From an archaeon (GTDB lineage: Archaea > Nanobdellota > Nanobdellia > Pacearchaeales > GW2011-AR1): a stretch of 64,000 nt of DNA. Made by a program: the position numbers and the translations under genes. The first letter of the stretch is position 1. The number at the start of each line of letters is the position of its first letter. A model generated the notes under the pieces. It had not been told where the DNA came from. It worked only from the letters and a program-made list of their open reading frames with translations, and ran no database searches. Location of the stretch: assembly GCA_018697035.1 (NCBI GenBank), contig JABHSE010000002.1, forward strand, positions 155,160-219,159, read 5' to 3'. Positions 21,493 through 58,460 of this stretch are shown here, in pieces.

Positions 21493-21496
21493 TTAT

Positions 21497-22123
21497 CTAT
21501 ATATCCAATATATCATATAAAAATGCATCGACTCCTTTCAAGAAATCACCCTCAATAAAAACGCAATTATTATCTCCATAAACCCTCGTCTCATTCCCGA
21601 TATCAAAAATAATCAAGTTAGAATCACAATCCTTAATCGGCAAATTCTCATCGCAGAACACATCAGAATTATTAGTTAAGTTGCCCAAATCATCCGACCA
21701 CCGACCACCGACCACCGACTCTCGGGAATCTTGCTGCAAGCAAGATTCCTGATATCTCAAAATATATCCGCCCAAATTATTCAAGACCTCACCAACGCCT
21801 TCATTCGGATTTACAAAATACAACGCCTTCCCGGAATAATCTCCAAACTCCACCGACACGTTCACATCAACATCCTCAACCTCCGAAGGCAAATATTGAA
21901 AACCAAAAACACTCTCATCTAAAATCAACTTCCACATTCCACCATCCCGAACAAATTCAAACCCCAACTCCTCAACAACACTTTCCTCCTCGCTATCAGC
22001 ATTCATAATAGCAAACCCAGCAGTAGAAGCTAGAAGCAAAAAAATCATACCAACTCCCATAATAATATTATTTCTCCGTCGAGCCCTCTCGATATCAGCG
22101 ATACTCTTAATCCGTCTCATCAT
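21497..22123 (-). CDS. membrane-anchored hypothetical protein
   Basis: ATG at 22123 (MMRRIKSIADIE...), one TM, Cys-containing ectodomain. TATA-like TTTATATT lies about 20-27 nt upstream. Contains a heptamer array. Confidence 0.55.
   Translation of the reverse strand: MMRRIKSIADIERARRRNNIIMGVGMIFLLLASTAGFAIMNADSEEESVVEELGFEFVRDGGMWKLILDESVFGFQYLPSEVEDVDVNVSVEFGDYSGKALYFVNPNEGVGEVLNNLGGYILRYQESCLQQDSRESVVGGRWSDDLGNLTNNSDVFCDENLPIKDCDSNLIIFDIGNETRVYGDNNCVFIEGDFLKGVDAFLYDILDI
21694..21721. repeat. tandem heptamer array (CCGACCA)x3 plus CCGACTC
   Basis: Read directly. In frame inside the 21497..22123 CDS, where it encodes ESVVGGRWSD. Confidence 0.9.
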
Positions 22124-22172
22124 ACAAAAAACAATTCCCCAAATATAAACCTTACTAAAAACCAAATGACAT

Positions 22173-24803: not shown

Positions 24804-25160
24804 ATGGCACAAAAAACAAAAACAAAAATAAGATATGTAGACATAAATGTAAACAAAGAAAACTTCGTCTCAAAACTAATCGGAGAAAAAAAATCTCACG
24901 ACTTCTCAGATGTAAAACTCCTTAGAAACCTCCTCTCAAACGAAAAATCTCGAATCCTCTACGTCCTCAAAACTCAAAATCCCAAATCAATATACGCTTT
25001 AGCAAAATTATTAGGTAGAGATTTCAAATCAGTAAGAGATGACATTAGGGTCCTGGAAAGATTCGGATTTATAGAATTCCATTCAGAAAAAACAGGCAAA
25101 CGCGAAGCCCTAAAACCAGTCCTAATAATAGATAAACTCCAAATAATAATAGAAGTCTAA
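24804..25160 (+). CDS. winged-helix DNA-binding protein (predicted transcriptional regulator)
   Basis: 118 aa. SRILYVLKTQNPKSIYALAKLLGRDFKSVRDDIRVLERFGFIEF is a wHTH. TATA-like TTATATAT lies 26-33 nt upstream of the ATG. Confidence 0.6.
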   Translation: MAQKTKTKIRYVDINVNKENFVSKLIGEKKSHDFSDVKLLRNLLSNEKSRILYVLKTQNPKSIYALAKLLGRDFKSVRDDIRVLERFGFIEFHSEKTGKREALKPVLIIDKLQIIIEV

Positions 25161-25648
25161 GAGCTACAAATCCTCATCCGAACAACCAAACTCTCCCCAT
25201 GCGAAACAATACTCCTCTGTGCCCCATTACTCTGCCCCGTGCAATTACCTTCATCCCATTTCAGAATTCCCTCGCCTTCCCGAACAAAAAAATCCAACTC
25301 CCAACTCCCAACCATTGCATCACTCAGAACCATCGAAGAAACAACATCACCCAAACTCTCATTCAAATAATCACAAGCCGAAACATCCAAATTACTACAA
25401 TCATCCCCATCATGACAACTCTTAAACAAGTCCTCAAAAGAATCATATTTAGGCACAGCAATAATCGCACAATCAGTAGTAGTCCTCATTATAACATCTA
25501 ACATATTCGAAACACCAACACTATCCACACTCCCCCCATCATCTCGAACCGAAATCACCAAAAAAATCATCAGAGCTACCATTACCAAAACCACAATCAA
25601 AACAAAACCCACAATCTCCTGTTGCCCTCTTCTTTTCAAATATTCCAT
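25157..25648 (-). CDS. class III (type IV prepilin-like) signal peptide protein
   Basis: MEYLKRRGQQEIVGFVLIVVLVMVALMIFLV, then a Cys-containing ectodomain. ATG at 25648 is 2 nt after the upstream stop. Confidence 0.6.
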   Translation of the reverse strand: MEYLKRRGQQEIVGFVLIVVLVMVALMIFLVISVRDDGGSVDSVGVSNMLDVIMRTTTDCAIIAVPKYDSFEDLFKSCHDGDDCSNLDVSACDYLNESLGDVVSSMVLSDAMVGSWELDFFVREGEGILKWDEGNCTGQSNGAQRSIVSHGESLVVRMRICSS

Positions 25649-25649
25649 A

Positions 25650-26003
25650 TTATTTACCAATACTTTGTATAAATAAATTTAACTTTTTCCCCAATTTGTC
25701 AATTTCTTCAAAAATCAGAATCAAGTCACTCTCTGTTAAATAATCCAAATCTAAAGACAAAAAAATTTGAGATTCAACTTCCTTTAGGCTCCCCATAGCA
25801 TTATGTAAAAAATAAATCAGCTCTTTATTTGTTCTCCTTCCACATCCCTCAGCAATATTAGAACTTACACTAACTACAGCTCTCCTAACCTGCGAAGTCA
25901 ACCCATAAATCTCTTCTCTTGGAAATTCCCTACTCAAAACATAAATCATTTTATTTAATCCCCGAGCAATATTCCATATCTCCAATTCCTTAAAATTTCT
26001 CAT
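25650..26003 (-). CDS. four-helix-bundle protein (23S rRNA intervening-sequence protein family)
   Basis: FKELEIWNIARGLNKMIYVLSREFPREEIYGLTSQVRRAVVSVSSNIAEGCGRRTNKELIYFLHNAMGSLKEVESQ is the family signature. Low-GC atypical composition. Confidence 0.85.
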   Translation of the reverse strand: MRNFKELEIWNIARGLNKMIYVLSREFPREEIYGLTSQVRRAVVSVSSNIAEGCGRRTNKELIYFLHNAMGSLKEVESQIFLSLDLDYLTESDLILIFEEIDKLGKKLNLFIQSIGK

Positions 26004-26030
26004 AATAAAATAGCAAAGCCGAACAAGTCA

Positions 26031-26152
26031 CCGACTACCGACCACCCACCTCCGACATCCGAAATTTATCTCTCATAGTAAAATAGCAAAATTAGCCAAG
26101 TCGGCGACAACCGACTACCGAATTGCGACCTCCAGGTGGTCGACACCGACCA
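26031..26152. repeat. heptamer arrays and duplicated segment upstream of the four-helix-bundle gene
   Basis: CCGACTA CCGACCA CCCACCT CCGACAT CCGAAAT (26031-26065). CCGACTA CCGAATT GCGACCT ... CCGACCA (26111-26152). AAAATAGCAAA...CCGACTACCGA occurs twice (from 26007 and 26080). Confidence 0.8.
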
Positions 26153-26630
26153 CCAATTTCCCAATCTCACACCTGTCATAAACACTCCCGAACTCCTTCA
26201 TCCTTTTACAAATAGAAACATAAGACGAAAACTTCTCAACATTCCCCTGCCCCGAATCATAGACACCATAATAATTACAATTAGCAGAAGGACACGGCAC
26301 AATCGAATCAAACGCAGGATAAACTTTGTAAACCTCCAAGGAAGCAATCGGCCAAAACTCACCATAACTTTCCCCATAACCCTCAACCATAACCCTCAAC
26401 TTATCCTCGTCAAGACTCATAGATTCCCTGTCCCCATAACTAAGCTCAGGCATACCGGCAATAATCTCCAACGACGAAATCGCCTCCTCTCTAGACAACT
26501 CATCAGCACCACCACGAACATCCTTAAACATAATAACCAAAAAAAACAAACCAACCAAAACAAAAAAGAAAAACACTCCGATAATCATAAACGACATCTG
26601 CATAATCTTCATCTGCCCAAATTTTTTCAT
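26115..26630 (-). CDS. class III signal peptide protein (restarted after an insertion)
   Basis: MKKFGQMKIMQMSFMIIGVFFFFVLVGLFFLV. The last codons (VVGVDHLEVAIR) are encoded by the heptamer array. Confidence 0.55.
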   Translation of the reverse strand: MKKFGQMKIMQMSFMIIGVFFFFVLVGLFFLVIMFKDVRGGADELSREEAISSLEIIAGMPELSYGDRESMSLDEDKLRVMVEGYGESYGEFWPIASLEVYKVYPAFDSIVPCPSANCNYYGVYDSGQGNVEKFSSYVSICKRMKEFGSVYDRCEIGKLVVGVDHLEVAIR

Positions 26631-26782
26631 CTGCCCCACCTCTTAGGTTCAACTACCAAGTTTCTACAAGAAAGCGCGGTGCCGAAGGTGCTGTGATTTC
26701 TTGTAGAATAAAACCAACGACCAACGACCAACGACCAACAACCTCGCGAAGCGTTTGACATCTGCATAATCTTCATCTGCCC
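26593..26782. mobile_element. 138-bp hairpin-containing insert bracketed by a perfect 26-bp direct repeat
   Basis: GACATCTGCATAATCTTCATCTGCCC occurs at 26593-26618 and 26757-26782. The insert carries a 12-bp inverted repeat TTCTACAAGAAA (26662-26673) / TTTCTTGTAGAA (26697-26708) and (CCAACGA)x3 (26714-26734). The mechanism is unknown. Confidence 0.5.
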
Positions 26783-26833
26783 CCTTCTTCTCTCCCAGCT
26801 TCTAACTCCAAACTCCCAACTTTTTCTCACCAT
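26627..26833 (-). pseudogene. orphaned original 5' end (leader) of the 26115 pilin-like gene
   Basis: MVRKSWEFGVRSWERRRGQMKIMQMS matches the 26115 product through GQMKIMQMS, then runs into insert sequence. Its ATG overlaps the stop of the upstream gene, which is operon-style coupling. Confidence 0.55.
26793..26820. repeat. degenerate heptamer array TCCCAGC TTCTAAC TCCAAAC TCCCAAC
   Basis: Read directly. Encodes SWEFGVRSW in the orphaned leader. Confidence 0.7.
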
Positions 26834-27810
26834 ATCTTACACAGCTCCCCATTATTATTTCTATCCATACTCTCCGCAACGGTCTTCAACGCAACCAAAT
26901 CATCACTCGTAGCATTCCCAGCCAAGCTTCCCCAAACAATCAAATCTCCCCTTAGGTTAGTCCCACAGTCCCGAGCATCCATCAAGTCAGCCTTAGCAGA
27001 AAAAACACCAGCAATACTCTTCACTCGATACATCAACCTCTCAACATTGCACTCATAAACATCACTCTCAGAAAAAATCGCACCCCACATCAAATTTCCA
27101 ACATACCTCAAATCTCCAGACGGTTTCGACACAACACCCTCATCATAAATCGAATCACAACCACCCGAACACGAACCATAAACAATACTATCACAATCAC
27201 TACCACCTCCAAAACAAACCCTCTCAGAGTCACTACTACAATTATCAAAAACAATATTATCAATCCCCAAATCCAAAACCTCACCCGCAACAACATCCGG
27301 AGCATTCAAGAAACAATACTCCCTATCCATCAAAAAAATCAAATCACTAACCTCATACGGAAACTCAAACGGCTTAGAAAAAACATAATAATCAAATCCT
27401 TCATTCTCCCTATTTGAAAAAATATATTTATTATAAATCGAAGTAGCACCACCAGGCAAATTCCACTCATTCCCAACACCACTCCGCATCGCAACCGACA
27501 ACTCATTCTCCCCAAACCTTCCATCATTCAAACAATCATTAAACAACCGAGTCTCCTGCTTAAAAGAAATCTTTCCAAAAGAACCCTCCGAGAAACCAGC
27601 CTGCAACGGATCAGTCAAAATAGAAAAACTCTTCGCGGCCTCCGTATCACTTCCATATCTCAAACCATCACCAGCCTGCACCGCACCATAAATTGCCAAA
27701 GCCAAAATCGCACCCCCAGCCAAAATCGCAAATATCCAAACAAAATTGAACTGCCCTCTTTTTTGAGCCTGCGAAAAAAACGTAAAGATTTTCAATCTGC
27801 CTCTTTTCAT
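26827..27810 (-). CDS. class III signal peptide protein, Cys-rich ectodomain
   Basis: ...SQAQKRGQFNFVWIFAILAGGAILALAIYG. 327 aa. Includes CSSDSERVCFGGGSDCDSIVYGSCSGGCDS. Confidence 0.6.
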   Translation of the reverse strand: MKRGRLKIFTFFSQAQKRGQFNFVWIFAILAGGAILALAIYGAVQAGDGLRYGSDTEAAKSFSILTDPLQAGFSEGSFGKISFKQETRLFNDCLNDGRFGENELSVAMRSGVGNEWNLPGGATSIYNKYIFSNRENEGFDYYVFSKPFEFPYEVSDLIFLMDREYCFLNAPDVVAGEVLDLGIDNIVFDNCSSDSERVCFGGGSDCDSIVYGSCSGGCDSIYDEGVVSKPSGDLRYVGNLMWGAIFSESDVYECNVERLMYRVKSIAGVFSAKADLMDARDCGTNLRGDLIVWGSLAGNATSDDLVALKTVAESMDRNNNGELCKIW

Positions 27811-27848
27811 TATATAACATAAGAAAACCTCTTTATATTTTTATTGAC

Positions 27849-28349
27849 CTACGCAATCACAACAAACCGATCATAAAACCCCTTCTGAATCTTCAACCCA
27901 TCCTCAACATCAACACAATAAGGATTCGAAGTCGCCGTAATCTTCGTCACATTAATCCGCTCAATCAACTTCCATGCCATACCACTAGCTTCCTGCGGCG
28001 GAACCAAAAAAACATTAGCATCATAAAAATCAAAATCCTCTATCGCATCATAATCATCCCCAGGATTAGTTATTCTCTCATTCAAATTCCCAAAACAACC
28101 CCTCTCAATCCCCGACGGTAAACTTATATCAAAATCACTATCGCTCTCCTGCCCCTGAACAGCATTATCCACAGCCGCCTGGAAATCATCATAAAACATC
28201 CCAACCCTAGCACTATCTCCAATATCCAAGAAAGACCTAACAGCAATCCCAGCAATAACAAGAAAAACCACAATCAAAAAAATAGCAAAGATCATCCCAA
28301 ACGACATGCCCACAGCCTGCTGTCCACGTTTATCAATCACACTCCTCAT
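27849..28349 (-). CDS. class III signal peptide protein
   Basis: MRSVIDKRGQQAVGMSFGMIFAIFLIVVFLVIAG. ATG at 28349; the track start 28364 is TTG. Confidence 0.6.
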   Translation of the reverse strand: MRSVIDKRGQQAVGMSFGMIFAIFLIVVFLVIAGIAVRSFLDIGDSARVGMFYDDFQAAVDNAVQGQESDSDFDISLPSGIERGCFGNLNERITNPGDDYDAIEDFDFYDANVFLVPPQEASGMAWKLIERINVTKITATSNPYCVDVEDGLKIQKGFYDRFVVIA

Positions 28350-28464
28350 CCAAAACCAAACCAAACATATTTTATAAAACTATTTAACACCCCGCCCCTC
28401 AACATTCCACATAAAAAATATCAACAGTTCCAAAGTTAAAAACCCACCGCCAAGCCCCCACGAA

Positions 28465-28563
28465 GTGAGCCTTCCCATTTTGTAAAACAAAATGAGCCCC
28501 ACCATGCAAAGCATGAGCTAATCCACAAAAGTGAGCCTCTCAGTAATTTTCAAAGAAAATTAC
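28465..28563 (-). other. array of three hairpins interleaved with a repeated (G/A)TGAGC(C/T) motif
   Basis: Hairpins are CATTTTG-TAAAA-CAAAATG (28476-28494), CATGC-AAA-GCATG (28503-28515) and GTAATTTTC-AAA-GAAAATTAC (28543-28563, overlapping the stop codon). Motif copies: GTGAGCC at 28465 and 28531, ATGAGCC at 28492, ATGAGCT at 28513. Confidence 0.5.
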
Positions 28564-30616
28564 TAGTCGGCCGTACAATAATAGAACACTCCGCACCCTC
28601 ATTCAAAAACTCATCCCGACATTTGATATAATAAGTCTCTTCTTCATTCCACTCAGCAACATGAATCGTCGTATTCCCATAAGGCATCTCAACACCCTGC
28701 TCAAACGAAAAAACACAATCATCGAACGAATACGAACACTCACTATCCCGAATCGTCACAATCTTCAACATATCACCCTCTTCATAAACCCGCGCAATCA
28801 TCGGAGGACTGCTATCAATATCAACCTCAAACTCCGCAACATCCTCAACTAAATTACCACCCCCATCAACACACTTCACATAATACTGATGCTCCCCATC
28901 CGTAAGATCCAACCTCTGCGTATGAATCCCATCTTCATTATTCGTATCAAAAAACTGAATATAATTAACCCCATCACTAGACCATTCACAAACAGCTTGA
29001 CCCTCATCACAACCAAACATAGTCTCGACATAAAGCTCAACAGGCGCAGGGCTCACTCCTCCAGAAATACTCCCATTCGGCCTCAACTCACTCAAAACTA
29101 AACCAGTACTCCCCCTCAAACTAAACTCAAAACTCTCCCCGTTCTCATTCCTATCATTCTCTTCCTCTCCCGGCTGATCCTTACACCGAACATAATAAGT
29201 CGCGCCATCTCTCGGAATCCCAGTAAGCTCAGTACTACATCCAAACAACTGCAAAGCATTAACCTGCTGATAAGAAGAAGAACAACTCATATCGCTCTCC
29301 ATCAAATCATAATCCTGGTCCTGAAAACTCCACTTACATTCCGAAGGCTCATTCACATAGAATATAACTTCGGCACTATCAACATCCTCAGCAACACAAC
29401 CCTCATTAACAATACTAGTCGCATCAATCCTCGGAGCCGTAGTATCAGGACTAGGGTCAATACAAAAATTCACAGCATATTCAGCCGAATTCTCGTTCCC
29501 ATTCTTATCCTTACACCGAACATAAAACATCATATCCTTTCCATTCTCCAAAACAAAACCACTCCCTAGAAGCTCCGCAGCCCCAGGCAAACTAAACACA
29601 TCACTATGATTATAACTATACAAATTACTCCCACCAAAGAAAGCAGTCATATCATCAAACTTCGTAGTATGATTAAAATCAATCTTACACTGCGCCGGCT
29701 CATCAGTCACAAGTCCAAATTCCAAAGGTGTAAACGCCATTAAACATCCATCCTCAGTCGCAACATTCACAATCTCAAAACCAGGTCCAGGCGGCGAATT
29801 CTTAACATTCTTATACTCATGACCCGTCGACAACTCATCATAATTCGGCTTAATAATAGGAGGGTCAACATCCCTAGGATTAACATAAACACATCTCTCC
29901 TCCTCCGTCCCCTCATTCACAATCTCACAAGCCTGCCCCAAAGCCTTACACCTATACTCACTACAAGGCAAATCATCATCATTACAAACCTCACAAGAGT
30001 CCCCACCATTAGGTGCCTGCCAAGGCATACAATCAAAAGTCACAACCTTCATCTCAACATCCTTATACATCAAAGCAAAAACCAAAACACCAACACCAAG
30101 TCCAATCCAACCAGCATTAGAGACTATTGACCCACCCTTAGCAAGTGCTCCAGTCCCAGTCGTATACGAACTAAAGGCCTTATACACCCCGAGTCCAGCC
30201 GCCAAACTCATCCCCAAAGCCTCCGAATTACCTTCATCCATACCAAACATATCTCCAAGCATTGTCCCAGCAAAATAAGCCAAAGCAGCCCATTGCAAAC
30301 CAGAAACAAGAGCACTCGGTCCACTTCCAGGAGTCATCTTAAATATACCAGATAAATAAGAATCAGAAGCTGTTGTAGGCAAGTTTACAGTACCAGGAAC
30401 TTCCGCTAATATACCCTTTCCCGCAGGAGAACCAACTGCTTCCCAGCCGACTCCATCAGAAACCCATAATTTATCAGGCGAAAGCATTCCTTTAGCTGAA
30501 GTGTAGATAGGATAAGAACCCCCACTAACAATCCCCATCATACCAACAACACCAATAAATCCAAAAACCAACAGCCAAACCTGCAACATCGCCACGCCCC
30601 TAACACCAAATCTCAT
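28550..30616 (-). CDS. large Cys-containing membrane/surface protein (paralog of the C-terminal half of the 36194..40054 product)
   Basis: ATG at 30616, with TTTATAAA 22-29 nt upstream. It has a signal anchor, a Gly/Ala-rich multi-TM region, and four repeats ending in YY[VI][RK]C-x-D. See findings. Confidence 0.65.
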   Translation of the reverse strand: MRFGVRGVAMLQVWLLVFGFIGVVGMMGIVSGGSYPIYTSAKGMLSPDKLWVSDGVGWEAVGSPAGKGILAEVPGTVNLPTTASDSYLSGIFKMTPGSGPSALVSGLQWAALAYFAGTMLGDMFGMDEGNSEALGMSLAAGLGVYKAFSSYTTGTGALAKGGSIVSNAGWIGLGVGVLVFALMYKDVEMKVVTFDCMPWQAPNGGDSCEVCNDDDLPCSEYRCKALGQACEIVNEGTEEERCVYVNPRDVDPPIIKPNYDELSTGHEYKNVKNSPPGPGFEIVNVATEDGCLMAFTPLEFGLVTDEPAQCKIDFNHTTKFDDMTAFFGGSNLYSYNHSDVFSLPGAAELLGSGFVLENGKDMMFYVRCKDKNGNENSAEYAVNFCIDPSPDTTAPRIDATSIVNEGCVAEDVDSAEVIFYVNEPSECKWSFQDQDYDLMESDMSCSSSYQQVNALQLFGCSTELTGIPRDGATYYVRCKDQPGEEENDRNENGESFEFSLRGSTGLVLSELRPNGSISGGVSPAPVELYVETMFGCDEGQAVCEWSSDGVNYIQFFDTNNEDGIHTQRLDLTDGEHQYYVKCVDGGGNLVEDVAEFEVDIDSSPPMIARVYEEGDMLKIVTIRDSECSYSFDDCVFSFEQGVEMPYGNTTIHVAEWNEEETYYIKCRDEFLNEGAECSIIVRPTSNFL

Positions 30617-30757
30617 ACTAAAACATTGCATCACACATTTATAAATTCTATCATCTTCCCAAATACAAAACGAGGCAACCAATGGTAACCATATATAGAA
30701 AAAATTTATGTGCAAGCAATCATGGGAAAACCCACACATAAATTTTAATATCGTTCT

Positions 30758-32968
30758 TCAATAAGTATTAAACTTGAAGTTACGCGGACTTTTGGGAATA
30801 TTAAACAATATTACCATAAAGGGCAACTCACTATTTGCAGATATATTCTGATGGGATTTACTACATTCCCTTAGTTTATCAGATACTTCCCGTTTACTAT
30901 AACGAAATACTTCATCATCTTCCATTAAGCATCCAACATAAACTCTTCCATAGGTTCTGGATTTCTTCCCCCTAAACTCACAAATAATCTTAGGGATTTC
31001 ATTAGAGGTATCGTGCTGATTTTTAATTTTCCCCCTCACAATATAAATTCTCCCATATCTGGGATGATTTTTAAATTGCCCAAATACTGTTCTATGATTA
31101 ATCCCAACCTCTTCAACCTGCCCGAATATCCACTTCTCCAAATCTTCTCCAAAGTCCTCAAATTCAAAATAATTTTCATAGGAAGCAAGATGAGACAAGA
31201 ATGAAATAATCTTCTCATTGGATACTTGAAGTAAAAATTTATCTCCTTCTCTTCTGATATCAACAATGCCAATAGCAGTTCGGATATCTTTGACAACCTT
31301 CGAAAAAATATTCAGTCCGTCAAGATAACCCGAAAAGTTATCAATAGATTTATCATAAAGATTTTTTATGGTTTGAGAAGAACCCACATCATTAGTTCCA
31401 ATAGAGAAACTAAGATGTCCATCCAAACCCAATTTTCCAGATACCAATCCCCATTGACCAACGGAAAGGATATCTAGTGCAGACATTAACGGCAGGCGCT
31501 TCCTGATTGAATTTATTTCATTCGCACCAAAATCCTCATCTACAGATTCTTTAATTTCTGAAAGTGCCCTAGGAGTAACCCTAACACCAGCAACAAATTG
31601 ACTATCCCTTGGAGCAGCGAGTATTAAGGGCAAGTGCCAATCAGAAGAATCAATATCAACTGAACTATCAGGCAGTTTACGATATATAAACCAGTCATCT
31701 TCCACCTCATACCCACTATATTCACACCCCTTACATTTCGGCGACAAATCAAACAAGAATTCAAAAATATCATCATAAGAAGAATCTGGCTTAATCTTAA
31801 TACCTATACCATAATTCCCAACCGGATCAGATACAAAGTAAATAAAAGATGCAACATCTCGCAAACCCTGAACAAATTCCTCCAACCCAAGAATCTCATT
31901 CCTAACCTCGGCAACAAGAGAATTACCAGTAGGCAGCATCTCATAAAGTTGCCCTGGCTTAATTGACCCAATATCTACAAGAGCAAAGAGGCAATTATCA
32001 TTTGACTTAAGGCTCTTAGGCAACGCAACGTTATGAATGTTTTCCACAATCCCAACTCCAACCTCATAAGCCATCCCCTCCAAACTCGCCCGCCTCACAG
32101 CCCCAGCCATATTCACCTCAAAAGTAAGATTCGGAATCTCCACAAAAATCTTATCATCCTTCTCCAGTTTGGAACTATCAAAGTTAAGAGAAATTTCTCT
32201 ACCAAGATGAGAGTACATCATGGATATGCCTTCAGGAACATAATAAGGAACCTTATACACAACATAACCAGCTCCATATTTTTCCCGAAGCTTCTCAATC
32301 ATTTCCTTATCCCGACTATCCATACCATACTTCACAGCACCCTTTACCAAATCCGCAGCCTTCCCATGCTTCCCAAAAAATCCAGTACTATTGTCGAATG
32401 CCATCTCAAGCTGAGTCCGATCATCATCACTCAAATCATAAGTCCCTTCAATAGAAGCATTGTACTTCATCAAGAGCCTAGATAATTCAGTATTCTCCGG
32501 AGAGCAAGCGCGCAGAGATATTTCTTTTTCAGTTACATTGTCCACAGCATCAATAGTTTGCGTCTCGCCATTAATAACCAATTTCTCAGGAAGCACCAAA
32601 TAAACATGCGTTCCTGTCATAACTTCTTGAAACAGCTGCTGAGAAACAGGGATACGGCCACTCAATTCTTGGACATTTTGGTCAGCACCATACTTCACCG
32701 TTAAAACATTTCCCGTCATATTTACCTCAACATCAATTTTCAAATGCGACCTAGGAGCAGATTCAACAGAAAGATAATTTCCAGACGATTTAACCTCATT
32801 TTCCTGAACCCTCAATAACCCCCTCCTAGCAGGTAACTGAGTGTTCAAGTTAGTAATATTTTTCCCCTGTGTAAAATAAGAATACTCCCCAGTTTTATCC
32901 TGATTAGCAGAAGCAACACCAGAAAGCCCAATAACCAATCCAGCAATTAAACAAACAAATTTTTTCAT
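30758..32968 (-). CDS. secreted hypothetical protein, compositionally foreign
   Basis: 736 aa. Sec-type signal MKKFVCLIAGLVIGLSGVASA. A-rich coding strand (plus strand 31501-31560: T25 A16 C14 G5), unlike native minus-strand genes. No family recognised. Confidence 0.6.
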   Translation of the reverse strand: MKKFVCLIAGLVIGLSGVASANQDKTGEYSYFTQGKNITNLNTQLPARRGLLRVQENEVKSSGNYLSVESAPRSHLKIDVEVNMTGNVLTVKYGADQNVQELSGRIPVSQQLFQEVMTGTHVYLVLPEKLVINGETQTIDAVDNVTEKEISLRACSPENTELSRLLMKYNASIEGTYDLSDDDRTQLEMAFDNSTGFFGKHGKAADLVKGAVKYGMDSRDKEMIEKLREKYGAGYVVYKVPYYVPEGISMMYSHLGREISLNFDSSKLEKDDKIFVEIPNLTFEVNMAGAVRRASLEGMAYEVGVGIVENIHNVALPKSLKSNDNCLFALVDIGSIKPGQLYEMLPTGNSLVAEVRNEILGLEEFVQGLRDVASFIYFVSDPVGNYGIGIKIKPDSSYDDIFEFLFDLSPKCKGCEYSGYEVEDDWFIYRKLPDSSVDIDSSDWHLPLILAAPRDSQFVAGVRVTPRALSEIKESVDEDFGANEINSIRKRLPLMSALDILSVGQWGLVSGKLGLDGHLSFSIGTNDVGSSQTIKNLYDKSIDNFSGYLDGLNIFSKVVKDIRTAIGIVDIRREGDKFLLQVSNEKIISFLSHLASYENYFEFEDFGEDLEKWIFGQVEEVGINHRTVFGQFKNHPRYGRIYIVRGKIKNQHDTSNEIPKIICEFRGKKSRTYGRVYVGCLMEDDEVFRYSKREVSDKLRECSKSHQNISANSELPFMVILFNIPKSPRNFKFNTY

Positions 32969-33207
32969 AACAATCTCCCAATTAAATTAAATAAAAATCA
33001 CACAAACCTCTACAAAAACACCAAGCCAAAAACATATTCCGACTCATTTCAAATATCAACCAAGATATTCCAACCCAAACACAAGTCAAAAGAAGTCTCC
33101 ACGCAAAAGCGCAAGTAGTCAGTGTAGTCTCTGTAAGTTTTGTGTATTGTTAATAATAAAGATTATCAATAACACATTAAAAAACTTCCTATTCTGGTTC
33201 CAAAAGT

Positions 33208-34959: not shown

Positions 34960-35705
34960 ATATCATATCCCGCCGGAAATACTAAGCTCCGACTCGCAAA
35001 TTTAAATTTATTACCAAATGTCTTATGCTCCAAAACATAAATCGTCGTCCCCTCTCCTCGCTTAATCTTCTCAATGTAATAATCAGGATAATAAAGCATC
35101 ATACTCGAAACATCACTGTCACCATACTTAGTCTCAAACTGCAAAATCGAAGTCGCAATCATAACCATATCATAAACAGGAGCATTAGCTTCAACACTAA
35201 ACCTAGCAAAACTCTGCGACCCAACAGATACAGGCGCATCAATCTCAAGTCGAACAGCTCCAGGTTCAATCTCAACATTATAATCAACCGCACCAGAATC
35301 AACATCATATCCCTCCTCCCTCAAACTAGCCAAACTCGCATCATAACAAGCATCAACATCATCCCTAATTAAAGCCTCTAAATTCTCATCAAACACATTC
35401 TTCAAAAACGGAACCTGCACAACACAAGTCTCATAAAAATTATTAGTATAACAAAGGTAAGTCAACTCCTCTCCATTATACGAATATGTAAAATCAGCCT
35501 CGATAAAACCAGCTTTCCCCTCAAGTTCACTAATCCCACTTTCAAGAGCATCCTCAACACATCCTTCAAATCCCTTTATCCCAACTCCCTCAGAAAAATA
35601 AGTAGGTTGCGCCCACAAAAAGAAAACCAAAAGAACAGATACTATCATAATAGCCACTATAATAAAAATCGTCACCTGTCCCCCTTTTCCGTCAAAACTC
35701 CTCAT
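34956..35705 (-). CDS. class III signal peptide protein (paralog of 40051..40848)
   Basis: MRSFDGKGGQVTIFIIVAIMIVSVLLVFFLW. The C-terminal KFKFASRSLVFPAGYDI matches EFKFAVRSCAFAPGI of the paralog. Confidence 0.65.
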   Translation of the reverse strand: MRSFDGKGGQVTIFIIVAIMIVSVLLVFFLWAQPTYFSEGVGIKGFEGCVEDALESGISELEGKAGFIEADFTYSYNGEELTYLCYTNNFYETCVVQVPFLKNVFDENLEALIRDDVDACYDASLASLREEGYDVDSGAVDYNVEIEPGAVRLEIDAPVSVGSQSFARFSVEANAPVYDMVMIATSILQFETKYGDSDVSSMMLYYPDYYIEKIKRGEGTTIYVLEHKTFGNKFKFASRSLVFPAGYDI

Positions 35706-35739
35706 AATAACTCTAACATTTCCATATTTATAAAATCTC

Positions 35740-36105
35740 TCATCTCAATTCACTCTTCCTAATATACTCAATAAAAGAAAATAACTTCATCTCAAGACCA
35801 ACAACCTTATTATTCAACTCATTAAATCCACCTTCCGTGAGATAATCCAAATCTTTGGCAAGAAACAATTGAGATTCAATTTCTTTAAGACTTCCCATGG
35901 CATTATGCAAGAAAGAAACAAAATCTTTACTAGTCCTCCTACCACACCCCTCAGCAATATTAGAAGAAACACTAACCGCGGCTCTTCTTAGTTGATTAGT
36001 CAATCCATAAATCTCATCTCTAGGAAAATCTCCAGTAGCAACATAAACCAATTTATTCAACTCTCGAGCAATTTTCCAAACATCCAATTTCTTAAAGTCC
36101 CTCAT
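35740..36105 (-). CDS. four-helix-bundle protein (23S rRNA intervening-sequence protein family), second copy
   Basis: FKKLDVWKIARELNKLVYVATGDFPRDEIYGLTNQLRRAAVSVSSNIAEGCGRRTSKDFVSFLHNAMGSLKEIESQ. Low-GC atypical composition. Confidence 0.85.
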   Translation of the reverse strand: MRDFKKLDVWKIARELNKLVYVATGDFPRDEIYGLTNQLRRAAVSVSSNIAEGCGRRTSKDFVSFLHNAMGSLKEIESQLFLAKDLDYLTEGGFNELNNKVVGLEMKLFSFIEYIRKSELR

Positions 36106-36193
36106 ATTATTTACCCAAGTCCCGCGCGTAGCGCTACCATCGCAACGAAGTTGCTACCATCCACTATCGACCCTCCGAAAATGCTTCGCATTT

Positions 36194-39100
36194 TCATACA
36201 GCAACCACCTCAATAGAACACCCGTCAGGCACATTCCCAAAATCATCCTTACATTTGATGTAGTAAGCATTACCATTTATGACACCAATAGAATGCTCTT
36301 CTCCACTTCCAGCATCCTCTCCATCTCCCCAACTAAACCTACAGGTCTCCATAGAATATTTACACTCCGCATCCTCAGTCGTAATGAAATGAAGTCTACT
36401 ACCAGCTTGCCAAACACGAGCGACAATAGGAGTCGAACTGTCTCGAACAATCTCAAACTCCGTCAAACCCCTATCAAAATCTCCAGTCTCATCTCGACAT
36501 TCAACAAAAATTTCATTAGAGCCAGCAGGACGATTCAAACTCTGAACATGCGTTCGACTTTCTCCCGTCTCAAACATTTCAATCATAGTATCATATCCAG
36601 AAAACGAATAAGAACAAAAATGAGAATCCCCACCACCACTAGTCGCAACCTTCAGCTCAATCGTCGTATAATCAGTATTAACCTCAAAATCACTATCAGG
36701 CTCAACTTTGTCAATTGAAATTTTCGAACTAGGCTTCTCTAAACTCAAAACAAAACTCTCCACGTTAGCATTTCTGTCACTGGTTTCATTCTCCCAAGGT
36801 TGATCCATGCATCTAAAATAATAATCCCGACTCGAATTCCCAATATCCAAAACTCCACTACACTCATACCCAAAAACACTCGAAGGTCTCCCCAACAAAT
36901 CAAGACAAACCAAATCATTACTCATACTAGAATACGAGACATCAACTAAGTCCCACCTACATTCCGCAAGCTCATTCGTCACAATCAAAGCACTAACATT
37001 CACAGCATCAAACGAAACAATGTCCCCACTTTCAGGCTCACTGCCAACAACAACCGGCGGCGTCACATCATCTCCCTCAACAACACACATATCAACCTCA
37101 AAAAACTCAGGACTAATCATACCATATCTATCTTGACATTTGATATACAAAGTTAATTCCGAAGTCCAATTCAATCCCTGACTTTCCCCATGACTCGGGT
37201 CTGGCAAACTAAAAACCGTACTATGATTATATGTATAACTATGGCTACCCAATTCGTAACTCATCTCCTCGAACTCATTCGCAACAACATCAAACCGACA
37301 CTGAGCAGGCTCACTTGTCACAATACCAAATTCCAAAGGAGTATAAGCATCAACACATCCACCACCTTCACTAACAACACTAAACCCATTTTCACTATCT
37401 ATATAACTCCCACCCGCAAAACCAATCGCAATATTCCGACGAACAATCGGCGGCGTCACATCGTTAGGATTCCCACTAACACAAAGCTCGTCCCCACTAC
37501 CCTCATTAATAAACTCACATCCAGCACCCAAACTCTCACACCGATATTCCGAACACGGCTTCAATAAGTCCCCATTGCATTCCTCACAAGAGTCACCTCC
37601 GATTGACGCCTGCCACGGCTGACATTCAAACTCAATTTCAATAGGTGGACAATCCGCCATCCCAAAGAATAGGGATAAAACTATAAGGAAAATACCAACC
37701 CAAAGTAAAGCAGTATAAACTGCTGCGGATAACACCTTCGCTCCCATGAGAGCTGCTCCAACCATTCCCCCTCCAATCGACATAAGCATACTACCACCCT
37801 CACTAAGCCCCAACCACTGAGCGAGCATCGCGCCAGCAACCATACCAATCCCAGCACCAATAGCAGCACTAGCAAATCCAGCCATACTAGCACCCTGAGC
37901 TGTAGACCCACCAATACCAGAAGCAAGTTTAGCTCCAACAGGTCCACCTTTAGCTAAAAGATATCCTTTTGCAACCTCCCCTCCAATCAACCCTCCTCCC
38001 TTCAAAACCGCAAATCCCATAACCTTCCCAGTAAAAGCAAAGTTCATCGCCGCTCCAATTCCACTAAGTCCCTGCCCAATCATACTAATATCAAAAGGTT
38101 CATCTTCTTCTGGAGAACCAGGAGCACTAGGTCCTCCCCAGACTCCACCTGCTTCCAAATACTCCGAATAATCCTCAACCTCAGCAAACTGCCCAGGAAT
38201 AGGAAGAGCCAACCTACTCAACGCATCAATCCAATCACCACTAAGAAACATGCCCTCACTCAAAGCCCCATCTCGCCTAATAATATAATTCCCAGACCAC
38301 TCCCCTAAAATATTAACCGATCCACCACAGTCCCCAAGCCCTCGACAAAAATCATTCATCTCCTGCCCAAACGTCTCACCCAGACATCCTTCATTCGCAA
38401 CATATTCACACCCTCCCCACTTTTTCGGTTTCTGAATAACAGTACACTTCTGACTAGCCATCCCACAAAGAGCCTCAGCACTAGTCTGATATCTCTCATC
38501 ATTCAAACTAAAACCTCCCGGATAATCAGGCAAACAAACATCAAAACTAAACTTATTACCAATAACAATATTTTCAACTCTACAATTCAGAGTAGTAGCG
38601 CACTCATCCATCACACTCAATGCATCAGGTCCACCACAAGCAGCAATAGCATCATCAATACATTCCATTTTCTCAAAATCACCAGGATAAAGGGTATAGT
38701 TCCCACAATTTTGAGACAGCCCAGAGACACAGGCCTTATTCGAAGCCGCGCTCTGCTCACTCTCCTTTTTCCCATTCAAATCAATACAGCTCCTCCAATT
38801 ATTGGCAACACAAGCCGCATTCTCAAACTCAACAACCGTCCCATTCACTTCAAACTCCTTTGACTGCACACAAATTTGATTCCGATAATCCGCACAAGGC
38901 TCAATCTGCACAAGACCCTGCGCACAAACATATTTCCAATGCCGAGACCCAACAACATCATCTCCCTCGCCAATCGCCCCATCGTAAACACACCACGATT
39001 CCCCATTTTCATATTCAATCCCATCAAACATACAAGAAGTATCTCGACAATAAAACTCACCGATATCAACTTCGAAACTGTCCTCACTAGCAGAAGCACA

Positions 39101-40054
39101 TATTCCACCCGCAAACCTGTCACAATTTCCGCAACTCGGATTATCCGCATTCCCACCTTCAATATCCTCACTCCCACAAACGTCCTCAGCCTCGGCAACC
39201 ATGTCCCAATAATCCACATCCTCAACCTTTTCAGAATCATAGATATTCGCCCGGTTCCCACAAGAATCCATAAAATAAACCCCATCCTTCCCATCAACAC
39301 AACTAGTCTGCCTAGTCATCTCACAACTAGTATTAAGCGAATCAGAAGTACATAGATAATTATGATTAAAATCCCCATCATAAGAAAAGCAATCCGCCTC
39401 ATTCAAAAATTCACATCCCCCTTCCCCTAAAACACAAGCTCCCATATCCTGGACAGCAGCCAAATACAAACACTCTCCCGCATCAACATCACTCCTCCAA
39501 TCAACAATATCGGTATCTCCAAGCCCCCTGGAATAATCAACTTCACACTGCCCCTTAGTTTCAAAAATAGTTTGTTCCCCTAAAACACAACATCCAAGAG
39601 CAGCTCCAGGCAAATTACAATTAGGGTCATCTATCCAATCCGCTGAGCAAGCGAACTCCAAAACATTCTTGTCATAAATTCCAGCCCCATCATCATAACA
39701 ACATCCCTTTTCACAAAAAGCAGTCTCTTCACAAAGCGCACCCTCAGCAAACGGAGAATCCTCAACACAATTTTCAGGATCAGCAGTTCCACACACCTGT
39801 CCATCAATGCTCAAAAAACAACAACCTACATCATCAGCGCTACTAGAGATAGGATAGCTAGTCCATTTCTCATCCTCAATCAACTCTCCATACGTAAACC
39901 TATCAAGAAAGTCCTGAAGTCTATCCTCTTCCTCGTCTTCAATAGCAGAAACAAACCCAGTCTCATTTAAGCTCACAAAATAGCAAAACGAAAAAAGCAT
40001 TCCAACCATCAAAACCATTTCAAATCCAGCAACAATTCTTCTATTCATCATCAT
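36194..40054 (-). CDS. giant Cys-rich membrane/surface protein (fusion of the 583-aa-like and 729-aa-like modules)
   Basis: ATG at 40054 overlaps the upstream stop (ATGA). It has an N-terminal TM, a Cys-rich ectodomain, a central Gly/Ala-rich TM block, and four C-terminal repeats. The track start 40075 is inside the upstream gene. Confidence 0.7.
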   Translation of the reverse strand: MMMNRRIVAGFEMVLMVGMLFSFCYFVSLNETGFVSAIEDEEEDRLQDFLDRFTYGELIEDEKWTSYPISSSADDVGCCFLSIDGQVCGTADPENCVEDSPFAEGALCEETAFCEKGCCYDDGAGIYDKNVLEFACSADWIDDPNCNLPGAALGCCVLGEQTIFETKGQCEVDYSRGLGDTDIVDWRSDVDAGECLYLAAVQDMGACVLGEGGCEFLNEADCFSYDGDFNHNYLCTSDSLNTSCEMTRQTSCVDGKDGVYFMDSCGNRANIYDSEKVEDVDYWDMVAEAEDVCGSEDIEGGNADNPSCGNCDRFAGGICASASEDSFEVDIGEFYCRDTSCMFDGIEYENGESWCVYDGAIGEGDDVVGSRHWKYVCAQGLVQIEPCADYRNQICVQSKEFEVNGTVVEFENAACVANNWRSCIDLNGKKESEQSAASNKACVSGLSQNCGNYTLYPGDFEKMECIDDAIAACGGPDALSVMDECATTLNCRVENIVIGNKFSFDVCLPDYPGGFSLNDERYQTSAEALCGMASQKCTVIQKPKKWGGCEYVANEGCLGETFGQEMNDFCRGLGDCGGSVNILGEWSGNYIIRRDGALSEGMFLSGDWIDALSRLALPIPGQFAEVEDYSEYLEAGGVWGGPSAPGSPEEDEPFDISMIGQGLSGIGAAMNFAFTGKVMGFAVLKGGGLIGGEVAKGYLLAKGGPVGAKLASGIGGSTAQGASMAGFASAAIGAGIGMVAGAMLAQWLGLSEGGSMLMSIGGGMVGAALMGAKVLSAAVYTALLWVGIFLIVLSLFFGMADCPPIEIEFECQPWQASIGGDSCEECNGDLLKPCSEYRCESLGAGCEFINEGSGDELCVSGNPNDVTPPIVRRNIAIGFAGGSYIDSENGFSVVSEGGGCVDAYTPLEFGIVTSEPAQCRFDVVANEFEEMSYELGSHSYTYNHSTVFSLPDPSHGESQGLNWTSELTLYIKCQDRYGMISPEFFEVDMCVVEGDDVTPPVVVGSEPESGDIVSFDAVNVSALIVTNELAECRWDLVDVSYSSMSNDLVCLDLLGRPSSVFGYECSGVLDIGNSSRDYYFRCMDQPWENETSDRNANVESFVLSLEKPSSKISIDKVEPDSDFEVNTDYTTIELKVATSGGGDSHFCSYSFSGYDTMIEMFETGESRTHVQSLNRPAGSNEIFVECRDETGDFDRGLTEFEIVRDSSTPIVARVWQAGSRLHFITTEDAECKYSMETCRFSWGDGEDAGSGEEHSIGVINGNAYYIKCKDDFGNVPDGCSIEVVAV

Positions 40055-40848
40055 ATCCCCGGCGCAAAAGCACAACTCCTCACAGCAAATTTAAATTCCG
40101 CTCCGGTCCGTCGATCAATTACTCTATATATCTTACTATCAGAATAATCAATTCGCCGAATATCATATTCAGGATAAAGCAACATATAACCATTATACTC
40201 AAAATTACAAAATTGCGACTCACTATTCACGATCTCTCGAGTAACTCGAACCAAATCATAAATCGGCGACATAACCTCAACACCAAAATCATCAAAACTC
40301 TGCACCCCACCCAAACCCGAAACTTCAATATCCTTCATTAAATTAACCTCAATATATCCCGGCAACAAATCAATAGAATAATCAGTCCCACCCCCACTCA
40401 CATCGAAACCTCTATCTTCAAAATCCTCTCTCATCGCATTAAAACAACTCTGCACTTCGATACTTGTATCCTTCACAATCTCTTTTTCAATCTGCATCTC
40501 TAACATCGGATGAAGATTATAACATCCCTGATAATAATCAGCCTGATAACACAAATAATTCCATTCTCGCCCATCATACGAAATCGCCTGTGACGCTAAA
40601 ACCTCACCACCATTCCGCAACATCTTGTCAATCGATTCCTCCACAACATCCCGAACACATCCAACAACAATATCCCGAGGCTCCAAATCACTCGGCTTCA
40701 CACCATCTCCATCCTGCCCCATCAAAAAAACCAAACTCAAAATAGCGACGACAATCACAATACCAATTATAATAAAAATCGTCACCTGTCCCTTTCTGCT
40801 CCTAACTCCTAACTCCCAACTCCCAACTTGTTTTAGCGCATCAGCCAT
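40051..40848 (-). CDS. class III signal peptide protein with heptamer-encoded leader
   Basis: MADALKQVGSWELGVRSRKGQVTIFIIIGIVIVVAILSLVFLMG. 265 aa. Confidence 0.65.
   Translation of the reverse strand: MADALKQVGSWELGVRSRKGQVTIFIIIGIVIVVAILSLVFLMGQDGDGVKPSDLEPRDIVVGCVRDVVEESIDKMLRNGGEVLASQAISYDGREWNYLCYQADYYQGCYNLHPMLEMQIEKEIVKDTSIEVQSCFNAMREDFEDRGFDVSGGGTDYSIDLLPGYIEVNLMKDIEVSGLGGVQSFDDFGVEVMSPIYDLVRVTREIVNSESQFCNFEYNGYMLLYPEYDIRRIDYSDSKIYRVIDRRTGAEFKFAVRSCAFAPGI
40800..40827. repeat. heptamer array TCCTAAC x2 plus TCCCAAC x2
   Basis: Read directly. Occupies codons 8-16 of the 265-aa gene (GSWELGVRS). It is absent from the paralog at 34956..35705. Confidence 0.9.
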
Positions 40849-41018
40849 AAATTCACCCCCACTTTCTTAATCCTATCAATCTTCCCGTCAATCAACAACT
40901 CCATCAAACATTTCTCCGCAGTATTCCAAGATACCCCAAAAAACTCAGCAACCTCACTACTAGTAACAACCCTCTCTTTCTTAATCAACTTAACCAACTC
41001 AACACTATGAACCTTCAT
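40833..41018 (-). CDS. small winged-helix DNA-binding protein at the head of the cluster
   Basis: MKVHSVELVKLIKKERVVTSSEVAEFFGVSWNTAEKCLMELLIDGKIDRIKK. TTTATATA lies about 35-45 nt upstream of ATG 41018; the track start 41081 is TTG. The 3' end overlaps the next gene by 16 nt. Confidence 0.55.
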   Translation of the reverse strand: MKVHSVELVKLIKKERVVTSSEVAEFFGVSWNTAEKCLMELLIDGKIDRIKKVGVNLWLMR

Positions 41019-41101
41019 AATAATATACCTATTAGAATACCTATGAATATCCATATATAAATATTGCCATAAGTTGCTCAAATCTGCAAAATAAAATTTT
41101 A

Positions 41102-58327: not shown

Positions 58328-58425
58328 AAAACAAAAAAGCATCACCTCTTTTTATTCCTTCCTATAAAGTGTCCATGAGAAATACGGAGTCGAAGACTGC
58401 GCAATTTTTCATGGAATAAATCTTC

Positions 58426-58460
58426 TCCTAACCCCCAACTCCTAACCCCCAACTCCCAAC
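58426..58460. repeat. five-unit heptamer array TCCTAAC CCCCAAC TCCTAAC CCCCAAC TCCCAAC (intergenic copy)
   Basis: Read directly. Abuts the trmY stop codon, upstream of acyP. Confidence 0.9.

Follow-up and report, generated by a model that had tools for sequence, protein, structure and literature searches.

The 64,000-nucleotide (nt) stretch of DNA analyzed in this study (the window) belongs to an archaeon of the Pacearchaeales (assembly GCA_018697035.1, contig JABHSE010000002.1, positions 155,160–219,159) and contains a cluster of 13 co-directional minus-strand open reading frames (ORFs) at window positions 25157–41081, which were designated g01–g13. Six protein families of the cluster have a basic leader that ends in Gly or Ala and is usually followed by Gln and then by a hydrophobic helix of about 20–25 residues, and two of them are paired with giant Cys-rich membrane proteins. 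Two helix-turn-helix (HTH) regulators bracket the block and an S-layer-like gene adjoins it. With about even confidence, we read the cluster as a surface module of the Pacearchaeota and Woesearchaeota that is related to the type IV filament (TFF) superfamily, is of the Methanococcus Epd or "system 1" kind, acts in adhesion or host contact, and is served in trans.

All ORFs were confirmed at the coordinates given below. In a preliminary description of this DNA, the cluster was said to comprise about 12 co-directional minus-strand genes with ATGA or short overlaps. The orientation and the overlaps held, and the count rose to 13. The two genes of the 23S_rRNA_IVP family (g04 and g12) and the gene for the 736-amino acid (aa) protein g07 had no place in that description, and all three are present. 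ATGA or short overlaps join g01/g02, g02/g03, g05/g06, and g12/g13, and the other gaps measure 18–239 nt. Each of the two pilin-like genes coding for about 250 aa is ATGA-coupled to its own giant, g02 to g03 and g05 to g06.

The N-Termini of the Six Pilin-Like Proteins

The first 45 residues of the window ORFs were scanned for the motif [KR]x0-1[GAS]Q followed, not more than eight residues on, by a 17-residue window with a mean Kyte–Doolittle hydropathy of at least 2.0. Six of the 188 ORFs of at least 60 aa matched, and these were exactly g02, g05, g09, g10, g11, and g13. The control with shuffled N-termini gave an expectation of 0.2 matches per ORF set compared with the six observed. In all six proteins, a short basic leader ending in Gly or Ala precedes a hydrophobic helix of about 20 residues. 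The two longer ones are the 265-aa g02 (40051–40848), in which the leader ending in RSRKG runs directly into QVTIFIIIGIVIVV, and its 249-aa paralog g05 (34956–35705; 32% identity, E = 3e-42), with DGKGG before QVTIFIIVAIMIVS. The four small ones were found by the same motif scan: g09 (27849–28349), with DKRG before QQAVGMSFGMIFAIFLIVV; g10 (26827–27810), with QKRG before QFNFVWIFAILAGG, which is the biggest of the four at 327 aa and has 10 Cys; g11 (26115–26630), with KKFG before QMKIMQMSFMIIGVFFFF; and g13 (25157–25648), the final gene of the cluster, with LKRRG before QQEIVGFVLIVVLVMV.

The conservation of these signals was examined in related loci. A scan with one genome per species gave 289 confirmed stretches, of which the best 79 loci were used for the comparisons; the other scans were run on 81 loci of up to 24 kb. 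Orthologs of g05 were found in 71 loci, of g09 in 19, of g10 in 13, of g11 in 11, and of g13 in 9. The residues [GAS]Q stand before the helix in 73/73 orthologs of g02, 71/72 of g05, 17/19 of g09, 11/11 of g11, and 9/9 of g13. The motifs of the families are K-[KR]-[GA]-Q-[VIL]-T-[IL]-F-[IV]-[IV] (g02 and g05), K-[RK]-[GA]-Q (g09, in 17 of 19), K-[KR]-[AG]-Q-[ML]-K-[IV]-Q-Q-M (g11), and K-[RK]-[GSA]-Q-[EQ]-E-[MI]-V-G-F (g13). In the g10 family, K-[KR]-[GA] is followed by F, Y, E, or Q, so that Gly or Ala at −1 is kept and position +1 is variable. In the g02/g05 alignment, Gln at +1 (Q21) and Phe at +5 (F25 in g02) are invariant, and Gln at +1 is present in nearly all orthologs of g09, g11, and g13.

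The codons at positions −3 to +1 vary synonymously (CAA/CAG, GGN/GCN/TCG, and AAR/AGR/CGN), indicating that the constraint is on the peptide and not on an RNA element. Counted from the nearest upstream ATG, the leaders are mostly 5–9 residues long. The possibility that the KRGQ motif is a Shine–Dalgarno-like RNA signal was considered and rejected because the codons are synonymous or conservative and the ATG lies 4–10 codons upstream in most orthologs. Profile–profile comparison showed that the six families are alike in the N-terminal segment alone and that their globular parts are unrelated. A common N-terminal segment on unrelated globular parts is the pattern of pilins.

The core pattern of the FlaFind program, reportedly set out by Szabo et al. 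in 2007, is said to be [KRDE][GA][ALIFQMVED][ILMVTAS]x3. A pattern of this type was matched by 61 of 73 members of the g02 family and 66 of 72 members of the g05 family (84–92%); within the window, only g02 matched it (KGQVTI).

The closest likeness is to the Epd pilins of Methanococcus maripaludis. Their tabulated, FlaFind-predicted processing sites are RAQI (EpdA), KGQV (EpdB and EpdC), KGQL (EpdD), and KGQI (EpdE) (PMC4371748), and their Gly-terminated leaders are 5–13 aa long (PMC3875500). The peptidase EppA cuts these pilins and requires Gln at +1; mass spectrometry confirmed Gln as the +1 residue (PMC4371748). The K-G-Q-V of g02 and g05 is identical to the EpdB and EpdC sites at all four positions, and the K-A-Q-M of the g11 orthologs agrees with the same set of sites and its obligatory Gln. 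These comparisons support the view that the six N-termini resemble archaeal class III (prepilin) signals, as the preliminary description had claimed. Among the window ORFs, the motif is unique to these six, and it is conserved, which upholds that claim; the small families fail the FlaFind-type pattern and no profile match to a known pilin signal was obtained, as detailed below, and to this extent the claim was weakened.

The Giant Cys-Rich Proteins

The first giant is encoded by g03 (36194–40054), an ORF of 1293 aa (1285 aa from the ATG that overlaps g02) with 71 Cys (5.5%). Two further large membrane proteins are encoded by g06 (33208–34959; 583 aa, 41 Cys, 7.0%), which has a transmembrane (TM) anchor and a Cys-rich ectodomain, and by g08 (28550–30739; a 729-aa ORF, 28 Cys, 3.8%), which has Gly-zipper helices and immunoglobulin (Ig)-like domains. 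The start of g08 is probably Met42 at 30616, which gives 688 aa. Residues 85–594 of g03 align with g06 (30% identity, E = 1e-49) and residues 679–1290 with g08 (33% identity, E = 2e-92). On these alignments, the three proteins are two paralogs, with g06 and g08 as the N- and C-terminal halves of a second copy of g03. In the nanoarchaeotal locus L002, both halves have their counterpart in a single gene of 1442 aa, at 57% identity for g06 and 52% for g08. The second giant is fused in about 7 loci and split into two adjacent genes in 28, and in 15 of these 28 the halves overlap or lie less than 25 nt apart.

The Pfam and NCBIfam searches gave no family for any pilin-like or giant protein; g08 matched Big_13 weakly. 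The earlier view of three large Cys-rich proteins that could not be assigned to a family therefore needs to be amended in one respect: they are Cys-rich and lack a Pfam or NCBIfam family, but they are not three independent proteins. The giant has 473 homologs. Among the 120 listed, all were unnamed or hypothetical except for one "glycine zipper family protein"; these had no Pfam domain and came from metagenome-assembled genomes (MAGs) labelled as Pacearchaeota, Nanoarchaeota, or "archaeon". Since each pilin-like gene of the 250-aa type stands directly before a giant (g02 before g03, and g05 before g06/g08), the repeating unit of the cluster is a 250-aa pilin-like protein plus a giant. This unit occurs twice in the window and three times in the loci L001, L002, L011, L028, L037, and L070.

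The giant was modeled with AlphaFold2 (AF2) via the ortholog P0064, which has 1162 aa and shares 48% identity with g03; the model was based on 73 sequences and had a predicted local distance difference test score (pLDDT) of 80. The model comprises an N-terminal TM helix (residues 2–25), a beta-rich ectodomain (36–535) in which about 42 Cys are invariant or nearly so, including those of three GCC-containing repeats, a disordered segment (538–606), helices rich in GxxxG motifs (603–672), and about five beta-sandwich domains (683–1162) with about 22 conserved Cys. Altogether, about 64 cysteines are conserved in the family, and hydropathy across the homologs indicates up to four central hydrophobic or Gly-zipper helices. 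If the first helix is oriented N-in, both Cys-rich domains would lie outside the cell. All matches of the Foldseek searches against the PDB and the BFVD were tandem Ig/fibronectin type III (FN3) ectodomains, adhesins, or proteins of phage tails or fibres, with identities of 7–14%.

The central helices also bear on a reading in which the cluster encodes a contact or "feeding" apparatus that penetrates the host membrane, with the Gly-zipper helices of the giants forming an intercellular channel and the pilin-like proteins a shaft. The position of the three to four conserved Gly-zipper helices, with a large ectodomain on either side, and the homolog named after its glycine zipper would suit such a channel; Pacearchaeota have a minimal metabolism and seem strongly host-attached (preprint), and the module is lineage-wide. 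However, neither sequence nor structure pointed to a known pore former or fusogen, as Foldseek against the PDB and the viral BFVD gave only Ig/FN3 matches, and these of the C-terminal half. The simplest explanation of the Gly-zipper helices is that they serve the giant as its own membrane anchor. We therefore consider a feeding apparatus quite unlikely. A related proposal is a new apparatus in which the six class III-type helices bundle with two or three Gly-zipper giants into a host-contact organelle (an attachment stalk or an intercellular conduit) without a dedicated TFF ATPase; this, too, we judge unlikely, if a little less so.

Conservation of the Cluster

The best 79 loci come mostly from Pacearchaeota, Woesearchaeota, Nanoarchaeota, and genomes labelled as unclassified archaeon; two are labelled as "bacterium" and one as Methanosarcinales. 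These labels support the DPANN origin that the preliminary description had supposed. That description had also named a lack of synteny in relatives as grounds for abandoning its reading. Instead, the order g01–g02–g03–(extra pair)–g05–g06–g08–g09–g10–g11–g13 is kept in the 79 loci wherever the flank reaches. Upstream, the backbone is shared as well, with the primase gene in 48 loci and the PCNA gene in 61. The conserved order and backbone indicate a stable chromosomal module and not an island.

The g02 protein has 294 homologs, of which the best 120 are 59–82% identical. The g02 family is the most conserved one of the cluster: its HMMER profile, searched against 1.84 billion representative proteins, matched 490 clusters at E ≤ 1e-30, and the number rose to 1154 with the threshold relaxed to E ≤ 1e-10; among the 150 matches listed, nearly all are about 250 aa long.

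Assembly Machinery and an Envelope Complex as an Alternative

A number of results weigh against a TFF-related module. The first group concerns the machinery. In agreement with the preliminary description, the Pfam scans of about 50 larger ORFs of the window found no T2SSE/FlaI ATPase, no T2SSF/FlaJ platform protein, and no A24 peptidase, and no gene for a polytopic, EppA-like peptidase was found in the cluster or the related loci. The window ends about 3.5 kb short of the end of the 222,746-bp contig; in the 10 kb to its left, ribosomal protein genes and no T2SSE or T2SSF family were found. In the 81 related loci, no candidate machinery lies within 10 kb of the cluster; this was a rough motif scan (T2SSE-type Walker A, Walker B, and His-box; GxGDxK for the peptidase) and not a search with hidden Markov models (HMMs). 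In addition, one preprint reports that type IV pilus (T4P) components are missing from DPANN genomes. In M. maripaludis and Haloferax volcanii, the ATPase and the platform are as a rule encoded away from the pilin genes (PMC3875500; PMC4371748), so the absence of machinery from the window is not anomalous. Most MAGs of Woesearchaeota are reported to have flaB/H/I/J/K (PMC11606122; PMC8407392), and the TFF "system 1" has been reported in DPANN (2026 preprint). Of the two options offered earlier, a cluster served in trans or a non-canonical system, the absence of machinery fits the first and does not count as evidence for the second.

The second group of results concerns the proteins themselves. 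The FlaFind-type pattern was matched by 1/19 members of the g09 family, 0/13 of g10, 0/11 of g11, and 1/9 of g13. The HMMs for pilins and class III signals (Pfam Pilin_N and Class_IIIsignal/DUF361; NCBIfam) matched 0/73 family members at E ≤ 1; DUF7248 matched 4 of the 73 weakly. No solved pilin was found by sequence when five family profiles were compared with all PDB chains, the best match being the hydrophobic helix of PilE1 (E = 0.27, non-significant). The Glu at +5 of EppA substrates is missing, as position +5 is Phe in g02 and g05 and g13 has Glu at +2/+3 only. No candidate for a small major pilin of 60–75 aa is present in the cluster. The conservation of g02 (59–82% in the best matches) exceeds that of the giants (about 40–70%), which is unusual for pilins.

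The predicted structure of g02 adds to these points. The AF2 model, built on 52 sequences (pLDDT 83, predicted template modeling score 0.72), consists of a helix (residues 20–43), a disordered linker (44–56), and an alpha/beta domain with three long helices and three sheets. A 24-residue helix, a 13-residue linker, and a separate domain differ from the continuous alpha1 helix packed on a sheet that is seen in pilins. Foldseek against the PDB found nothing at E ≤ 1e-3 for this model; the best match (E = 7e-3, TM-score at most 0.11) is not a pilin, and the top matches have TM-scores of about 0.1.

The main alternative is a non-filamentous envelope complex, in which the N-termini would be signal anchors, cleaved or not, that tether the globular domains and the giants below the S-layer as a scaffold, a pore, or a device for anchoring or organizing the S-layer, with no TFF ATPase involved. 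The membrane helix, flexible tether, and compact domain of the g02 model, which has no pilin-like structural match, speak for this alternative; the strong conservation and uniform length of the g02 family, the adjoining S-layer-like gene, the lack of linked machinery in all 81 loci, and the reported absence of T4P components from DPANN point the same way. It should also be noted that many FlaFind-positive archaeal proteins, for example sugar-binding ones, are not pilus subunits (PMC4371748). However, in six unrelated families two basic residues and a Gly or Ala lead up to an invariant Gln, a pattern that is the recognition motif of EppA and that a plain signal anchor would not require. Moreover, the fixed order of the four small proteins is reminiscent of minor-pilin sets, and a TFF ATPase and a platform serve even the Sulfolobus bindosome. 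We regard an envelope complex as less probable than a TFF-related module.

Comparison with Known Systems

The TFF-related module that we favor most resembles the Epd locus of M. maripaludis. There, too, one operon codes for several proteins with class III signals and for larger proteins of an accessory or adhesin-like kind, and another locus holds the ATPase gene and the two platform genes. Unlike that system, the cluster has no EppA gene, no DUF361/Pilin_N match, no Glu at +5, and no 60–75-aa major pilin. Conversely, the Epd locus has neither giant Cys-rich proteins with a double ectodomain nor paired units of a 250-aa protein and a giant.

In the bacterial FimU–PilVWX plus PilY1 and GspHIJK systems, the genes for four different small pilin-like proteins follow one another in a set order, with that for a large adhesin alongside. 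One member of such minor-pilin sets is clearly larger than the others, and by analogy g10 (327 aa) may be compared to GspK. In contrast to these sets, the signal of the cluster is of the archaeal type, and no similarity in sequence or fold was detected. The giants also differ from a PilY1-type adhesin, as they have TM helices of their own and are thus integral to the membrane, no beta-propeller was seen in them, and they are not soluble tip proteins.

The bindosome (Bas) of Sulfolobus consists of surface proteins with class III signals and a few small pilin-like proteins; it is associated with the S-layer and forms no long filament. The Bas operon differs from the cluster in having its own ATPase and platform and, as cargo, solute-binding proteins, which are absent here. 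Bindosome subunits are among the substrates of the peptidase PibD (PMC4371748). Modular type IV pilins, such as PilB of Streptococcus sanguinis, are reported to combine a pilin module with a large adhesive module (PMC8179133). In the cluster, on the other hand, the pilin-like and the putatively adhesive parts are separate, translationally coupled proteins. Finally, tandem Ig/FN3 adhesins such as GhpA of Aureispira, a Foldseek match, are like the C-terminal part of the giant with its approximately five Ig/FN3-like domains; at 7–14% identity, this likeness is generic and at the level of the fold.

Proposed Mechanism

We infer the cleavage, assembly, stoichiometry, localization, and host-contact role of the cluster products as follows. 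The leader would be cleaved after its Gly or Ala by a prepilin peptidase (EppA/FlaK/PibD type) whose gene lies elsewhere in the genome. The freed hydrophobic helices would then associate into a short pilus, a pseudopilus, or a bindosome-like stalk, probably with the help of a TFF ATPase and a platform that are also encoded elsewhere. In this structure, g09, g10, g11, and g13 would form an initiation or tip set similar to minor pilins, and each 250-aa pilin-like protein would dock one giant. The Cys-rich ectodomain and the five Ig-like domains of the giant would project through the S-layer and make up the adhesive, host-contacting part.

Insertions and Repeats within the Cluster

Three genes of the cluster (g04, g07, and g12) do not belong to its core. 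The products of g04 (35740–36105) and g12 (25650–26003) match the 23S_rRNA_IVP family, a four-helix bundle (PF05635, E = 7e-35 and 2e-33, respectively), and are 62% identical to each other. Genes of this family are present in 4 of the 81 related loci (L003, L013, L015, with three copies, and L017), and the junctions at which they stand vary. At 25995–26133, a 73-nt tandem repeat duplicates the 5′ end of one of these cassettes. The IVP genes look like mobile cassettes that repeatedly targeted this operon. As the four-helix bundle is Avd-like, a diversity-generating retroelement was looked for; this candidate was rejected, since the window contains neither a reverse transcriptase nor a template/variable repeat pair, and the match to bAvd was faint.

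The 736-aa product of g07 (30758–32968), which has a Sec-type signal and 8 Cys, is a lineage-specific insertion at the g06/g08 junction. No homolog was found in the 81 related loci, and nine were found among 5.8 billion proteins; the search against phage genomes gave no match. Residues 29–305 are 46–57% identical to a module in proteins of Pacearchaeota, the candidate phyla radiation (CPR), Spirochaetes, and Planctomycetota. The C-terminal partners of this module vary and include a GspG pseudopilin of the type II secretion system (T2SS) plus ankyrin repeats, the SecDF P1 head, and Lcl_C. On this sequence evidence, residues 29–305 are a promiscuous, horizontally spread domain. The idea that g07 split a single giant gene was rejected: g06 and g08 are separate in 28 loci, with nothing between them in 15, which means that g07 was inserted at an existing junction.

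A further insertion of about 135 nt (26627–26833) cuts g11 off its ancestral start at 26833, where it overlapped the stop codon of g10. It is flanked by a 26-nt direct repeat, GGGCAGATGAAGATTATGCAGATGTC, and contains (GGTCGTT)x3 and a hairpin with a 12-bp stem. This insertion may be a miniature mobile element with its target-site duplication.

A G-rich heptamer repeat, (GTTGGGR/GTTAGGA)n, of 31–36 nt was also observed. It occurs in five copies, two of them 100% identical, at 8078–8108, 26791–26821, 34907–34937, 40798–40828, and 58424–58454. In g02, g06, and the ancestral g11, a copy makes up part of the first codons and encodes SWELGVRS; of the other two copies, one is intergenic and one is within a wyosine-synthesis gene. 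The repeat may act as a leader or regulatory element, form a G-quadruplex, or represent a mini-insertion.

The IVP cassettes, the insertion of about 135 nt with its target duplication, and the foreign g07, all of them inserted in the cluster, together with a number of pilin–giant pairs that varies from two to three, could suggest that the entire cluster is a variable, horizontally acquired island, whether mobile, virus-derived, or related to defense by surface variation. This is very improbable and largely refuted by the synteny: the cluster has a fixed position between the PCNA gene (61 loci) and the S-layer-like gene, and its core content and order are alike across Pacearchaeota and Woesearchaeota. 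Furthermore, no integrase or other mobility gene was found, and the phage search with g07 was negative. The core is stable, and the insertions were added to it in particular lineages.

Regulators and Neighboring Genes

The cluster is headed by g01 (40833–41018), which codes for a winged-HTH regulator of 61 aa counted from the ATG; the ORF runs to 41081, and the gene overlaps the start of g02. The product matches DUF977 (E = 1.5e-6) and HTH_DeoR (E = 1.4e-4), both above the cut-offs, and faintly FaeA (E = 0.012, below the cut-off), which bears out the small winged-HTH gene proposed earlier for the start of the cluster. Its homolog stands upstream of the cluster in 30 related loci. The other end is closed by a convergent plus-strand gene for an HTH regulator of the HVO_A0114 type (24804–25160; PF25212, E = 1.5e-17). 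This gene lies directly past g13 on the opposite strand in 9/9 related loci with g13 and was matched in 10 loci overall.

The downstream neighbor on the minus strand is the S-layer-like gene (22243–24375; Pfam S_layer_C, E = 2e-9). It was found by tblastn downstream of the cluster in nine loci whose flank extends far enough. The Pfam search of the cluster proteins for S_layer_C or S-layer domains gave no match; only this neighbor matched. Near it, a short archaeosortase/exosortase-like membrane protein with a weak EpsH match is encoded at 20291–20809, and in the vicinity of the latter (18487–20250 and 20806–22165) are genes for a surface protein with a CARDB domain and for two proteins anchored by their N-termini. 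Together with the S-layer-like gene, these genes suggest a wider cell-envelope gene neighborhood.

On the other side of the cluster, two type I membrane proteins with signal peptides are encoded beside the primase gene (45633–47501 and 47532–48821). In one of them, 32 Cys and a weak terpene-cyclase-like region were noted. The two genes are kept beside the backbone of the cluster in 35 and 23 related loci and may be part of the same envelope neighborhood.

Most of the other larger ORFs of the window were scanned, and these are housekeeping genes (among them PCNA, primase, FtsZ, ribosomal proteins, tRNA synthetases, form III RuBisCO, and an ABC transporter), and the Rfam search of the window found three tRNAs and nothing else. 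The form III-type RuBisCO and an AMP/pyrimidine-nucleoside-phosphorylase-like gene (59648–60922 and 1393–2865) are consistent with the nucleotide-salvage metabolism described for Pacearchaeota. A very strong compositional strand bias was seen throughout the window: where the genes are on the minus strand, the GC skew of the plus strand reaches about −0.5, so that the coding strands are markedly purine- and G-rich.

Significance of the Cluster

No description of this cluster was found in the literature. Castelle et al. (2021) reported Pacearchaeota-specific modules of membrane and extracellular protein families without a predicted function (PMC8204110), and the genes of the cluster probably belong to these modules. 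The type of signal is known, and it is the six protein families, their giant partners, and the paired architecture that are undescribed.

The genomes of the Pacearchaeota and Woesearchaeota, which are abundant and uncultivated, are minimal, and these archaea presumably live attached to hosts. About 16 kb of a very small genome is spent on this locus, and its content and order are conserved in at least 79 species-level genomes. The cluster is thus a concrete, lineage-wide candidate for an attachment apparatus of DPANN archaea, on evidence that is wholly computational. If its products do form an attachment or host-contact structure, they would provide concrete targets for the study of DPANN symbiosis by antibodies, labelling in cryo-electron tomography, and heterologous cleavage assays, and the type IV filament superfamily would gain new pilin-like families together with a new class of giant partners. 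If no ATPase serves the cluster, it would represent a new use of prepilin-type proteins.

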